Below, one piece after another: positions 14,621 to 47,947 of a DNA stretch of 64,000 bases. How positions within the stretch are numbered: position 1 is the stretch's first letter; every line of letters begins with the position of its first letter. The stretch is taken from NCBI RefSeq assembly GCF_056746865.1, contig NZ_CM163382.1. One strand, given 5' to 3'. Position numbers and translations under genes: made by a program. The notes beneath the pieces are model-generated. The model saw only the letters and a program-made list of their open reading frames with translations. It did not search any database and was not told the origin of the DNA.

Positions 14621-14785
14621 GCCTTATCTCCACCTCTTCGCGTCATTACGCGATATTCATTAAAGTGGCGAAAGCATGACAGCAATCACAAAAAAATGAA
14701 AATAACAAAAAGAGAAAACACTTTTGCCATTTTGCTAACAAACAGGAAGGAGATGCGAGGGAGAACGCGCTCCCTCGAGAGGAAA

Positions 14786-14875
14786 TCAGTGCAGCGCGGC
14801 AGTCAAACCCACGGCCACGATCAAACCGAGGACGATAATCGTTGTTACCAGTGAAAATTTAAGGTCGGTGCTCAT
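14786..14875 (-). CDS. ynhF: Small membrane protein (29 aa)
   Basis: Hand translation of the minus strand gives MSTDLKFSLVTTIIVLGLIVAVGLTAALH with a stop; not in the ORF track because it is short; sits where K-12 ynhF lies between ydhP and purR. Confidence 0.7.
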   Translation of the reverse strand: MSTDLKFSLVTTIIVLGLIVAVGLTAALH

Positions 14876-15113
14876 CAAGTTTTCTCCTTTTTTATTACCA
14901 CACAAAAAGTGATATTACGCATTTTTACACACTGTGATGAAAAAATCTCCCGTCATTTATAATGATAAGTGTTTTTACCACTTCCCCTTTTCGTCAAGAT
15001 CGGCCAAAATTCCACGCTTACACTATTTGCGTACTGGCCATTGACCCCTTCCTGACGCTCCGTGTCGTTTTTCCGGCGTACCGCAACACTTTTGTTGTGC
15101 GTAAGGTGTGTAA

Positions 15114-15129
15114 AGGCAAACGTTTACCT
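15114..15129. promoter_or_regulatory. PUR box (PurR operator) in the purR leader, consistent with autoregulation
   Basis: AGGCAAACGTTTACCT, a 16-bp near-palindrome matching the PurR consensus ACGCAAACGTTTTCNT, 45 bp upstream of the purR ATG. Confidence 0.55.
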
Positions 15130-15173
15130 TGCGATTTTGCAGGAGCTGAAGTTAGGGTCTGGAGTGAAATGGA

Positions 15174-23765: not shown

Positions 23766-23842
23766 GCGTTCATAGCTCAGTTGGTTAGAGCACCACCTTG
23801 ACATGGTGGGGGTCGTTGGTTCGAGTCCAATTGAACGCACCA
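23766..23842 (+). tRNA. valV: tRNA-Val (anticodon GAC)
   Basis: 77-nt cloverleaf GCGTTCATAGCTCAGTTGGTTAGAGCACCACCTTGACATGG...TGAACGCACCA; anticodon GAC; encoded CCA. Confidence 0.97.
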
Positions 23843-23846
23843 TCCT

Positions 23847-23923
23847 GCGCCCGTAGCTCAGTTGGTTAGAGCACCACCTTGACATGGTGGGGGTCGGTGG
23901 TTCGAGTCCACTCGGACGCACCA
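23847..23923 (+). tRNA. valW: tRNA-Val (anticodon GAC), with C4 opposite A69 in the acceptor stem
   Basis: 77-nt cloverleaf GCGCCCGTAGCTCAG...CTCGGACGCACCA, 4 bp after valV; 5' strand GCGCCCG against 3' strand CGGACGC. Confidence 0.93.
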
Positions 23924-24030
23924 GATTTTCTTAATCTGGTCTTCTCCTTTTTCCCTCTGTTTCTTCTCTGTATCCAATACGTTAAAAGATTTACACTGTC
24001 TTCGTATGCGTTATCAGAAGGAGAATCGCT

Positions 24031-24336
24031 ATGGCAACTTTGTTACAACTTCATTTTGCTTTTAATGGCCCATTTGGCGACGCAATGGTTGAGCAGCTTG
24101 AACCGCTTGCTGAGTCGATTAATCAGGAACCTGGTTTTCTGTGGAAGGTATGGACAGAAAGTGAAAAGAACCACGAAGCCGGTGGGATCTACCTTTTTAC
24201 TGATGAAAAAAGCGCCCTTGCCTATCTGGAAAAACATACTGCCCGACTGAAAAATCTCGGCGTTGAGGAAGTTGTCGCCAAAGTTTTCGATGTCAATGAG
24301 CCACTTAGTCAAATCAATCAGGCAAAACTCGCCTGA
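24031..24336 (+). CDS. ydhR: Putative monooxygenase (Dabb/ActVA-Orf6-like)
   Basis: 101-aa ORF, recognised as YdhR. Confidence 0.88.
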
Positions 24337-35004: not shown

Positions 35005-35037
35005 GAAAAATGGCGCACATTGTGCGCCATTTTTTTT
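35005..35037 (+). terminator. lpp rho-independent terminator
   Basis: AAAAATGGCGCACA-TTG-TGCGCCATTTTTTTT: hairpin flanked by an A-run and a T-run. Confidence 0.85.
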
Positions 35038-41349: not shown

Positions 41350-41718
41350 CTATACCCCAAAGCTTTCGCCACAGCCACATTCATTCTGGGCTTTAGGGTT
41401 GTGAAATTTGAATATCTGATTAAGTCCTTCACGAACGAAATCGACTTCCGTGCCATCAATAAACGGCATCGCTTGCAGCGGGACAAACAGCTTCGCACCG
41501 TCGTGTTCAAACAGCAGATCGTCTTTGTCCGGCTCGCTAACACTGTCGAGCACATAGCCAAAGCCCGCGCAGCCCGTTTGCTTCACGCCTAAGCGCACGC
41601 CGACCATACCCGGCTGCTTTGCCACCAGCTCGCGTATGTGGACAGCGGCTGCGGGTGTCAGCGTTAAGCCCTGCCAGGCGAAATCCTGTGGATTAAAGGT
41701 TCCTGAATGCATGTCCAT
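41350..41718 (-). CDS. sufA: Fe-S cluster A-type carrier SufA
   Basis: 122-aa ORF with C-terminal CGCGESF motif. Confidence 0.95.
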
Positions 41719-41763
41719 CGATTTACCTCACTTCATCGCTTTCAGCGTATAACAGCATGTTAG

Positions 41764-41778
41764 TGATAATGATTATCA
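41764..41778. promoter_or_regulatory. Fur box in the sufA promoter region
   Basis: TGATAATGATTATCA matches the Fur consensus GATAATGATAATCATTATC, about 46 bp upstream of the sufA ATG. Confidence 0.6.
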
Positions 41779-42004
41779 GTTCAACCCAGCAAACGCAGGG
41801 GCTTTACCGTAAAACATGCTTTTTTCTTGCTTTTAATAAGCATAGACCCTGATGTGTGGGTTAACAGGCACGCTAAGAATTAGGTATCTCATTGTTAGAT
41901 AATGATTATTATCTAAGGAGCATTAAGGCTGTGATGAAAAAGAAAAAGTTGTATTGAAAATGACTATTTAAGAGATAGGTAAAAAAGTGCAGCGTTCAGA
42001 AATA

Positions 42005-42113
42005 AGAAAACCCTTAAGTCTGTGCGACACAGGCTTAAGGGTTTCTACCCCATCCGGCGCTTATCTCCGGCACTCTCAGTGGCTTAGCTCTTGAAGGGGC
42101 GATAAGAATAATC
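42005..42113 (-). ncRNA. rydB: Small RNA RydB region (approximate) with its terminator hairpin
   Basis: K-12 rydB lies between sufA and ydiH on the minus strand; a 17-bp near-perfect hairpin (42007-42044) is followed on the minus strand by TTTTCTTATTT; exact 5' end not determinable from sequence. Confidence 0.4.
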
Positions 42114-42266
42114 TCATAAAGCTAAGCCGTCGTTTTAACACAAACTGCGATTAGTATTATTTTTGAACAATATCAGGCGGTTAGATAAGCAGTATTAAGA
42201 AGGTTATCGAACCTGGACGGAGGTTAATCCAGGTCGATTTGGCGAAATTGCAGCATTAAGTCAGGA

Positions 42267-42455
42267 TCAATGCACGCCCAGACGCCAGGCAAAGTAGATT
42301 TCTTCTTTTAATTCAGCAGAAGAGAGAGTAAGCAGGTCAGCAAATTCAAGTTCTAGTTGTTTCAGACGTTTGAGATATTGGGCAGGTGAAAGATTGCTCT
42401 GGTCACGGCGTAAAAATTCAATGGCCAGCTGGGTGGGATCAAGTTGAGTAGACAT
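42267..42455 (-). CDS. ydiH: Small uncharacterised protein (62 aa)
   Basis: ORF trimmed to internal ATG (MSTQLDPTQLAIEFLRRDQS...). Confidence 0.8.
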   Translation of the reverse strand: MSTQLDPTQLAIEFLRRDQSNLSPAQYLKRLKQLELEFADLLTLSSAELKEEIYFAWRLGVH

Positions 42456-42554
42456 AGCATCCTCGCTTTTAGACAAGACCTGCACAGTATACCACCGTTT
42501 ACTGTGCAGATAATAACCAAAAGCAATATGCGTCACACTTTTCTGGTGACAACG

Positions 42555-42965
42555 TCACAAAATGGCGGTCGTTAATCGTGACGAACAGCACAAACGCCCT
42601 TTCTCATCGAAGATTTCAATCTGCCAGACCTGGTGACGCGAACCGAGATGCAACGGTTTGCATACGCCGCGCACCCGCCCTTCTCGTGCCGAGCGGACGT
42701 GGTTAGCATTGATTTCCAGACCAACCACCTTTTGCTCACCTTCGGTACATAAATAACCGGCAACGGAACCGATACTTTCGGCCAGTACCACGGATGCCCC
42801 TCCATGCAGCAACCCGAAAGGCTGCTTTGTCCGCGAGTCTACTGGCATTGTCGCTTCAAGGGTGTCATCACCAATATGTTCAAAGCGAATATCCAGCAAC
42901 CCCACCATGTTTCCTTCACCCATGGCATTCAGTGCTTCCAGGGTGATTTTTCGTTTCCATATCAT
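42555..42965 (-). CDS. menI: 1,4-dihydroxy-2-naphthoyl-CoA hydrolase (hotdog-fold thioesterase)
   Basis: 136-aa ORF, PaaI-like hotdog thioesterase; 4-nt overlap with ydiJ. Confidence 0.9.
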   Translation of the reverse strand: MIWKRKITLEALNAMGEGNMVGLLDIRFEHIGDDTLEATMPVDSRTKQPFGLLHGGASVVLAESIGSVAGYLCTEGEQKVVGLEINANHVRSAREGRVRGVCKPLHLGSRHQVWQIEIFDEKGRLCCSSRLTTAIL

Positions 42966-47704: not shown

Positions 47705-47809
47705 ACGGTTATAAATCAACATATTGATTTATAAGCATGGAAATCCCCTGAGTGAAACAACGAATTGCTGTGTGTAGTCTTTGCCCATCTCCCACGATGG
47801 GCTTTTTTT
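47705..47809 (+). ncRNA. rprA: Small regulatory RNA RprA (rpoS translational activator)
   Basis: ACGGTTATAAATCAACATATTGATTTATAAGCATGGAAATCCCCTGAGTGAAACAACGAATTGCTGTGTGTAGTCTTTGCCCATCTCCCACGATGGGCTTTTTTT matches the known 105-nt RprA, including the terminator hairpin and U-run. Confidence 0.93.
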
Positions 47810-47947
47810 TAACATTTTTCCGCTTCGCTACCTCGCCCCTCACGCTTTCCAATAATGTTGCACAAGATACTGTGACTCTCTTCAAGCCGTCAGCAGGCTG
47901 ATAATGTTATTTATATTTTATTGTTTATTTCATGCAGCCATTACACG

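Follow-up and report, generated by a model that had tools for sequence, protein, structure and literature searches.

What role is played by the long, almost perfect hairpin that lies between ydiH and sufA in Escherichia coli? The element occupies positions 42008 to 42044 of the 64,000-nucleotide stretch of E. coli DNA analyzed here (the window), in which the minus-strand gene order is menI, ydiH, rydB with the hairpin, and sufA. The locus is that of the known E. coli small RNA gene rydB. We propose that the hairpin acts as the terminator and insulator of a transcription unit comprising rydB and read-through from ydiH, and that subsequent cleavage by an endonuclease, probably RNase III, yields the mature RNA; we assign this reading a probability of roughly 0.6. 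The finding itself is already known, since RepRanger records a rydB terminator and since the 105-nt annotation of the gene in Salmonella implies one. What may not have been spelled out before is that the mature end of RydB lies inside the terminator-like stem and that unrelated long hairpins recur at this place.

RydB, its ends and the downstream hairpin

The sufA-ydiH spacer of the window is 100% identical to that of strain 118UI, and this intergenic stretch was found in 5421 of 5426 complete E. coli genomes. Alignment with K-12 revealed a base-for-base match over positions 41906-42125, so that experimental data obtained in K-12 apply directly to the window. The Rfam rydB model RF00118 matched positions 42040-42100 of the minus strand (model positions 1-61 of 61; 81.6 bits, for a gathering score of 50 bits; E = 8.6e-19), and the K-12 gene b4430 is found in the same synteny. 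A first-pass annotation, made from the letters of the window, had placed a candidate RydB between ydiH and sufA, and both results bear this out. The comparison with published rydB coordinates that it had called for projects b4430 onto 42045-42112. rydB belongs to the core genome as a single-copy gene (5421 of the 5426 genomes), and the feature is missing from most RefSeq annotations of E. coli genomes (NCBI pipeline). In E. coli P276M (NZ_CP044293.1, 188117-188157), only the first 41 nt of RydB matched; the gene is apparently truncated or interrupted in that strain. The features at the 3′ side of the gene are as follows.

42045 to 42112, minus strand: K-12 GenBank rydB feature (b4430, 68 nt; K-12 1764713-1764780), projected by alignment
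42040 to 42100, minus strand: mature RydB RNA, 61 nt (RF00118 match; Term-seq 3′ end; 5′ end predicted from the promoter)
42039 to 42040, minus strand: mature 3′ end, presumed endonucleolytic cut (Term-seq 1764708(-))
42008 to 42044, minus strand: long hairpin (5′ arm 42044-42028, loop 42027-42025, 3′ arm 42024-42008)
41997 to 42010, minus strand: U-rich tract UUUUCUUAUUUCUG, the first three U of which form the stem base

Term-seq of K-12 (Adams et al. 2021; PMC7815308) locates the dominant rydB 3′ end at 1764708(-), which corresponds to position 42040 of the window. The Term-seq file contains three condition sheets with rydB once in each; the coordinate and the counts were taken from two. The end was represented by 2.17 and 4.14 million reads, for growth in LB to an optical density (OD) of 0.4 and probably in LB to an OD of 2.0, respectively (PMC7815308). 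The same data set gives 0.08-0.18 million reads for lpp and 3.5 million for a tRNA-Asp end, placing rydB among the strongest 3′ ends in its tables. The 42040 end reads ...GGGGUAGAAACC^CUUAAG (AAACC^CUUAAG); it lies 5 nt into the 5′ arm of the hairpin and coincides with the last position of the Rfam match. The first-pass annotation had made its candidate depend on a discrete small transcript, and this strong end is evidence of one. Since the annotated K-12 RNA stops at 42045, one base short of the stem, the hairpin lies downstream of RydB and outside it. The dominant end at 42040, inside the 5′ arm, further indicates that the abundant form of RydB is devoid of the hairpin.

The hairpin has 17 stem positions (16 pairs, 94% complementary), with a C.A mismatch at stem position 12 and a 3-nt gap between the arms. 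As minus-strand RNA, it reads AAACCCUUAAGCCUGUG-UCG-CACAGACUUAAGGGUUU, followed by UCUUAUUUCUG. The 17-nt stem with one mismatch and the 3-nt loop had been described correctly at first pass, with a start (42007) that was one base off. Folding of the region, which had been suggested as a check, yielded a stable minus-strand hairpin of -22.0 kcal/mol (z = -6.15; none of 200 dinucleotide shuffles equaled this value). As plus-strand RNA the C.A mismatch turns into a G.U pair, for -25.2 kcal/mol. Within the 64-kb window, this is the longest close-spaced inverted repeat with at least 90% complementarity, the next-longest being the lpp terminator (14-nt arms) and one 15-nt pair. The U-rich tract noticed after the hairpin on the minus strand is indeed present (UCUUAUUUCU).

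RydB itself folds into P1 (CCCC/GGGG), a small P2, P3 (CCGG-A-G-AUAAG-C-G-CCGG) and an 8-nt tail, UAGAAACC. RNAalifold applied to 100 homologs recovered the Rfam fold, with compensatory changes at each of the 5 P1 pairs; P3 does not vary among these homologs, partly because it served as the search pattern, and its invariance is uninformative. Pairing of the 5′ segment CCCCUUCAAG of RydB with the 3′ arm of the hairpin was also considered; at -8.1 kcal/mol (p of ~0.16 versus shuffles), and being absent with the other hairpin types described below, it was rejected.

Two segments upstream of the RydB core were found to be conserved.

42108 to 42116, minus strand: extended -10 motif TGAGATTAT (TG-n-GATTAT), ending 7 nt upstream of G 42100
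42133 to 42143, minus strand: upstream element TTGTGTTAAAA, at -43 to -33 from G 42100, to which conservation suggests a function

Across 53 distinct RydB upstream regions, TG at -16/-15 and GAnnAT at -13 to -8 were conserved. For the upstream element, the same regions showed TT at -43/-42 (69-75%), T at -37 (75%) and AAA at -35 to -33 (83-92%), the rest being mixed. This conservation extends to RydB paralogs in unrelated gene contexts, including copies without ydiH, and divergent paralogs have TATGAT, 7 nt and P1 at unchanged spacing. The upstream element, judged by its sequence, may be a -35-like or UP-like element. RydB is predicted to start at ~42100, at the G opening P1, from its own promoter, giving an RNA of 61 nt; the RNA delimited by the predicted start and the Term-seq end is as long as the Rfam model. 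The GenBank 5′ end is probably 12 nt too far upstream, since 42112 falls inside the -10 hexamer. More generally, the K-12 GenBank feature looks shifted, with a 5′ end inside the predicted -10 hexamer and a 3′ end 5 nt short of the Term-seq end. The length of RydB accordingly differs by source (68 nt in GenBank, 61 nt in Rfam and 105 nt in the Salmonella annotation), and the band in the original Northern blot is said to have been of ~60 nt. We agree with the first-pass annotation that the 5′ boundary is uncertain from sequence.

The predicted promoter bears on the possibility that the hairpin is the terminator of ydiH and that RydB is a fragment derived from the 3′ untranslated region of the ydiH mRNA. 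ydiH, RydB and the hairpin share a strand, and no convincing terminator lies between ydiH and RydB, the only structure nearer to ydiH (42206-42238) being devoid of a U tract. In addition, the Term-seq tables list no 3′ end at 17648xx or 17649xx, and none after ydiH or at 42206-42238 (PMC7815308). These observations have to be set against the putative promoter motif, which is kept at a fixed distance from the core under other upstream genes (a LysR regulator in Citrobacter and a phosphotransferase system transporter in Pantoea, among others). They also have to be set against RydB reads at the level of a tRNA, for a ydiH gene that has no called 3′ end, and against the ydiH-rydB spacer, which in E. 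coli varies more than any other part of the region. We consider a ydiH origin of RydB very unlikely. The first-pass statement that the structure could equally be the ydiH terminator stands to the extent that ydiH read-through would still reach the hairpin; RydB has a predicted, conserved promoter of its own, and the two roles are not an either/or.

Conservation of the hairpin with RydB

Species-representative genomes were scanned with the RydB core, which yielded more than 120 loci (designated by L numbers). The representatives of 24 species carry a CUUAAG-type hairpin directly 3′ of RydB; they belong to Escherichia, Salmonella enterica subsp. diarizonae, many Citrobacter, Silvania and Leclercia. 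Salmonella enterica subsp. arizonae (L088) also has the hairpin, with a linker that escaped the search pattern, and is for this reason outside the 24. Among the 24 representatives, the stems span 16-18 bp, and there is no constraint on the loops, of 3-11 nt. Sequence is nearly fixed over the outer 11 bp (G/A-AACCCUUAAG with CUUAAGGGUUU). Compensatory changes were detected at stem positions 8, 12, 13, 15, 16 and 17, involving U-A, G-C or A-U at position 12, C-G or U-A at positions 13 and 16, G-C or A-U at position 15, and, in Leclercia, replacement of U-A by C-G at position 8. In 11 of the 24, a mismatch occupies position 12. In each of the 24, the stem runs directly into a U-rich tail, which contains six to seven consecutive U in most Citrobacter and reads UUUUCUU... 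in Escherichia.

Within E. coli, strains with more than 20 single-nucleotide polymorphisms in the ydiH-rydB spacer have an unchanged stem, and one O26 strain has a change in the loop. The hairpin was found at a median of 1 and a maximum of 2 places per genome (5420 of the 5426 E. coli genomes). In Salmonella, no sufA gene was found within ~1.8 kb downstream of RydB and the hairpin is still present, indicating that it belongs to rydB rather than to sufA. Together, these results show that the hairpin is a selected structure tied to RydB. The counts of G.U and C.A combinations in the 24 representatives are about equal and do not assign the functional strand; the assignment to the minus strand is based on the T-run, which lies on one side only.

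The palindrome might alternatively act as DNA, either as a protein-binding site for control of sufA or rydB or as a sequence left behind or targeted by a mobile palindromic element. Such a role would account for outer arms that are kept in sequence (AACCCTTAAG/CTTAAGGGTT), for G.U and C.A counts that clearly favor neither strand, and for the presence of an IS1397-family element exactly at the stem base in one E. coli strain. The spacing of the conserved arms nonetheless varies from 13 to 21 bp, which is awkward for a dimeric DNA-binding protein. Moreover, the changes in the inner stem are compensatory, the T-run is one-sided, and the hairpin is single-copy and neither a repetitive extragenic palindrome (REP) or bacterial interspersed mosaic element (BIME) nor an enterobacterial repetitive intergenic consensus (ERIC) sequence. 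A DNA-level role is the least credible of the explanations that we weighed.

The strain in question is E. coli SC434 (NZ_LR778142.1; L003:4326-5765), in which an IS3-family, IS1397-like element has entered precisely at the hairpin base (window 42042-42044) with a 3-bp GTT target duplication, leaving RydB ~1.4 kb from the hairpin. IS1397 targets palindromic units. The insertion suggested that the hairpin might be a REP-derived element; this was ruled out, the hairpin being single-copy and listed as a Rho-independent terminator (RIT) by RepRanger.

Proposed termination and maturation

The proposed sequence of events would begin with initiation at or beside G 42100 from the conserved extended -10 promoter. 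RNA polymerase would then synthesize the 53-nt three-helix core followed by the 17-bp hairpin, and most transcription, including that reading through from ydiH, would end in the U tract at ~42007-41998. The hairpin would thereby keep the very strong transcription of rydB out of the sufA control region, which starts a few tens of bases downstream. Finally, the primary transcript of ~100 nt would be cut inside the stem, presumably by RNase III, to give the abundant 61-nt RydB ending in ...GGGGUAGAAACC.

A stable stem-loop with an adjacent U-rich tract on the transcribed strand is the signature of an intrinsic terminator, and the hairpin with its U tract probably does end transcription. The RepRanger paper classes rydB under RIT, not REP. 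The rydB annotation of Salmonella is 105 nt long and is flanked by ydiH and STM1368; since Salmonella has the same hairpin (L088, L119), these 105 nt must span the core, the hairpin and the U tract. The view of the hairpin as the terminator of RydB, taken at first pass, is thus partly upheld: the stem and the U tract are present, and the mature end at 42040 makes termination at best the first of two steps.

Several observations count against the proposed reading. The RNA 3′ ends expected in the U tract of an intrinsic terminator were not seen: no 3′ end is listed for K-12 1764600-1764699, U tract included, in the three Term-seq conditions (PMC7815308). A consensus terminator scan of 41600-42600 returned no terminator at all, missing the hairpin perhaps because the mismatch breaks the stem. 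The stem, at 17 bp, is on the long side for an intrinsic terminator, and the U tract is interrupted in E. coli (UUUUCUUAUUU). The RydB start is a prediction, with the GenBank 5′ end 12 nt further upstream. Evidence of rnc dependence for rydB was not found: the available text and files of two RNase III mapping papers, one of them Gordon 2017, contained no rydB entry. The 8-nt tail of RydB could also mark the stalling of a 3′ exonuclease after another cut.

The silent U tract raises the question of whether the hairpin terminates transcription at all or is mainly a double-stranded processing signal that frees RydB from longer transcripts, with an incidental U tail. The lack of a reported 3′ end at the E. 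coli U tract would follow directly. So would the hairpins of other lineages, which are of similar length and unrelated sequence and have tails (GGUCAUUU, GUUAAUUA and AUCUUCCU) without a direct U run, as well as the conservation of the outer 11 bp in sequence, beyond pairing. Conversely, a U-rich tail in 24 of 24 representatives, with six to seven U in most Citrobacter, is hard to regard as incidental, and read-through from a very abundant transcript into the sufA control region would be costly. The absent Term-seq peak is itself neutral on termination, because the distal fragment would be lost from the libraries after a double cut. Processing without termination thus appears improbable, and termination followed by cleavage remains the preferred sequence.

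As for the nuclease, we name RNase III as the candidate for cleavage of the stem at somewhat less than even odds. It is preferred because an end inside a stable helix would otherwise be hard to make, for instance by single-strand nucleases, because the end is identical to the nucleotide in two Term-seq conditions, and because 12 stem positions separate the cut from the loop. The duplex, with 17 positions and one C.A mismatch, exceeds the one helical turn expected of an RNase III substrate. If the usual 2-nt 3′ overhang is assumed, the partner cut would fall between 42011 and 42010, and the intervening pairs are C4-G and C5-G, which are invariant in the 24 species. In vivo, the two positions between the cuts of E. 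coli RNase III are reported to be paired, usually with a G-C pair among them (PMC6212723), a rule with which two C-G pairs agree and which further favors this enzyme. Processing is also favored by the two unrelated long hairpins that occupy this place after RydB copies of other lineages, such as C. koseri. Double cutting would also explain the missing Term-seq end at the U tract, since the distal piece would be small and unstable.

Another route to the same end combines a plain intrinsic terminator with maturation independent of RNase III, the 42040 end being made by an RNase E-like cut nearby or by 3′ exonucleases stalling ~8 nt from the core, with polyadenylation or a helicase helping to digest the hairpin. 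RNase II and PNPase stall ~8 nt before a helix, and RydB does have an 8-nt single-stranded tail after P1. The stem and the conserved U-rich tail are equally expected under this explanation, and no rnc evidence was found for the 42040 site. An identical single-nucleotide end in two conditions nevertheless fits a site-specific cut better than nibbling. An exonuclease able to remove a hairpin of -22 kcal/mol should also pass a core of predicted -14.7 kcal/mol. RNase E, for its part, needs single strands, whereas AACC^CUUAAG lies in a helix. We regard this route as a minority explanation, appreciably less probable than maturation by RNase III but the most serious of those competing with it.

In published work, RydB is described as Hfq-independent, with direct targets and regulators that are not known; it lowers RpoS expression, is ppGpp-repressed in Salmonella and is strongly repressed after replication stress. 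We tentatively suggest, as an idea that is more speculative than RNase III cleavage itself, that RydB is a processed stable RNA rather than a terminator-ended regulator of the Hfq type. The long hairpin located 0-4 nt past the core would then be a conserved RNase III maturation signal that was replaced at least twice. If so, a compact, multi-paralog RNA of 61 nt with three helices and with unvarying junction and loop segments, present at the level of a tRNA, would point to a protein- or ligand-binding role.

The main value of the analysis lies in annotation, since three sets of RydB coordinates are in circulation. The proposed reading provides a consistent 61-nt RNA (42100 to 42040) that has its own predicted promoter and is distinct from the hairpin at its 3′ side. 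Should the hairpin both insulate and be cut, a deletion or cassette placed at the annotated rydB could alter suf expression, and overexpression constructs of 68 nt would be without the natural 3′ processing context. The context of such constructs would bear on the scattered phenotypes attributed to RydB, which concern rpoS, persisters and peroxide sensitivity.

The RydB family, the neighborhood and comparison with known systems

RF00118 matched 2-4 copies per genome in Pantoea, Erwinia, Rouxiella, Serratia, Raoultella, Kosakonia, Atlantibacter, relatives of Sodalis and others. The paralog loci lie among L012-L123 and include Pantoea L022/L023, L037/L038 and L097/L098, Rouxiella L030/L031 and L046/L047, Erwinia L057/L058, and Raoultella L111/L112. 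The invariant segments of RydB are the junction AGAGCUA and GCCGGAGAUAAGCGCCGG (P3 partly by ascertainment). The neighbors of 106 RydB-like copies fall in many unrelated clusters, including sufA, the LysR regulator, a metallophosphatase-like protein (so named by its look, unscanned), an opposite-strand dehydrogenase and others. This heterogeneity indicates that the copies are independent small genes and not leaders of one family. Aptamer-like conservation and the terminators of the paralogs had suggested a riboswitch or cis-regulatory leader; the unrelated downstream genes, and the fact that all copies match the rydB model, ruled this out.

A hairpin of at least 15 bp follows the core in 34 of 103 copies, starting ~0-4 nt from P1 in all but one, and most other copies have an ordinary terminator of 6-13 bp with a strong U run, 15-50 nt downstream. 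At least three unrelated sequences form long hairpins after RydB, namely, the CUUAAG type, the GCGAACGGUCAG type of Citrobacter koseri, Citrobacter sp. R56 and Awk 4 and Pseudenterobacter (L015, L068, L104 and L066), and the UUUCAUCAGGGCUG type of a Pantoea/Erwinia paralog (L096, L057, L113, L037 and L073). The latter two types are of 14-19 bp with no U run directly after the stem; shape and position are kept and sequence is replaced.

Two other observations concern the paralogs. In Candidatus Pantoea deserta (L055:287-678), a CRISPR array with Rfam CRISPR-DR4 repeats at 411-678 has a RydB paralog (80.6 bits) in leader position, ~60 nt ahead of its first repeat. In the Sodalis/Acerihabitans group (L008, L042, L043, L085, L090 and L117), a conserved segment, AGAAAAGCGCAUCGGC...UUACCUCCUCG-AGAGGGAGUACAGCAAAGGUUGUCGGUGCGC, with a long stem is present ~40-110 nt past the RydB core, beyond the terminator of one paralog; the two loci scanned (L008 and L043) gave no Rfam family at E <= 0.01 for this segment.

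The neighbors of rydB in the window are as follows.

42267 to 42455, minus strand: ydiH coding sequence (62 aa), upstream neighbor (annotation/open reading frame)
42206 to 42238, minus strand: smaller hairpin of 12 bp with one bulge and without a U tract, 29 nt past the ydiH stop, candidate 3′ structure of the ydiH mRNA
41350 to 41718, minus strand: sufA coding sequence, downstream neighbor, with a regulatory region filling 41719 to ~41990

The helix of the smaller hairpin sits in an 82-nt fold of -16.7 kcal/mol (z = -3.0). On the sufA side, a sigma-70 promoter-like site, ATCACA-16-GATAAT, is present at 41935-41908, and the hexamer pair ATCACA/GATAAT is listed for sufABCDSE by genomic systematic evolution of ligands by exponential enrichment (SELEX). 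A palindrome resembling OxyR half-sites (CTATCTCTTAAATAG; 41964-41978, minus strand) starts ~20 nt past the U tract. OxyR, IHF, Fur and IscR act in the suf control region, and the palindrome is presumably placed where the OxyR site of the suf promoter is expected.

Immediately before the ydiH start, the menI-ydiH spacer contains an imperfect inverted repeat of 28 nt (42465-42524; 75% complementary, 4-nt gap). A promoter-like sequence, TTGTCA-16-CATATT, is located at 42552-42525, and genomic SELEX lists its hexamer pair for ydiH. A GTG-start open reading frame of 35 codons (41987-42094, plus strand) runs antisense to RydB and through the hairpin; support for it was not found, and it is taken to be a chance open reading frame. 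Elsewhere in the window, Rfam matches were obtained for STnc550 (14783-15173, minus strand) and RprA (47705-47812, plus strand), and the region 23766-24047 contains two tRNAs with an antisense HPnc0260 match.

Comparison with known systems can begin with RydB (RF00118, b4430), which is the same gene, alike in sequence and in position between ydiH and sufA and different only in coordinates. REP and BIME sequences resemble the hairpin as extragenic palindromes, one strain having an IS1397-family insertion at its base, and differ from it in being dispersed, whereas the hairpin is single-copy and without the REP consensus. Intrinsic terminators such as that of lpp (35006-35034) share with it a stem-loop and U tract that close a short, highly expressed gene and precede the next control region. 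The arms are nevertheless of 14 nt in lpp and the stems of 6-13 bp in most RydB paralogs, versus 17 bp here. The lpp end also maps in the U run (PMC7815308), unlike that of RydB, which lies inside the stem, with an interrupted U tract beyond it. Finally, phage T7 R1.1 and the rRNA processing stems have in common with the hairpin a long near-perfect duplex next to a stable RNA, an end within the duplex and C-G pairs between the predicted cuts. The hairpin differs from these RNase III substrates in a partner cut and an rnc dependence that are only presumed, in the 3-5 bp below the cut and in its terminator-like U tract. Maturation of a small RNA by RNase III is itself reported in Campylobacter (PMC8687705).

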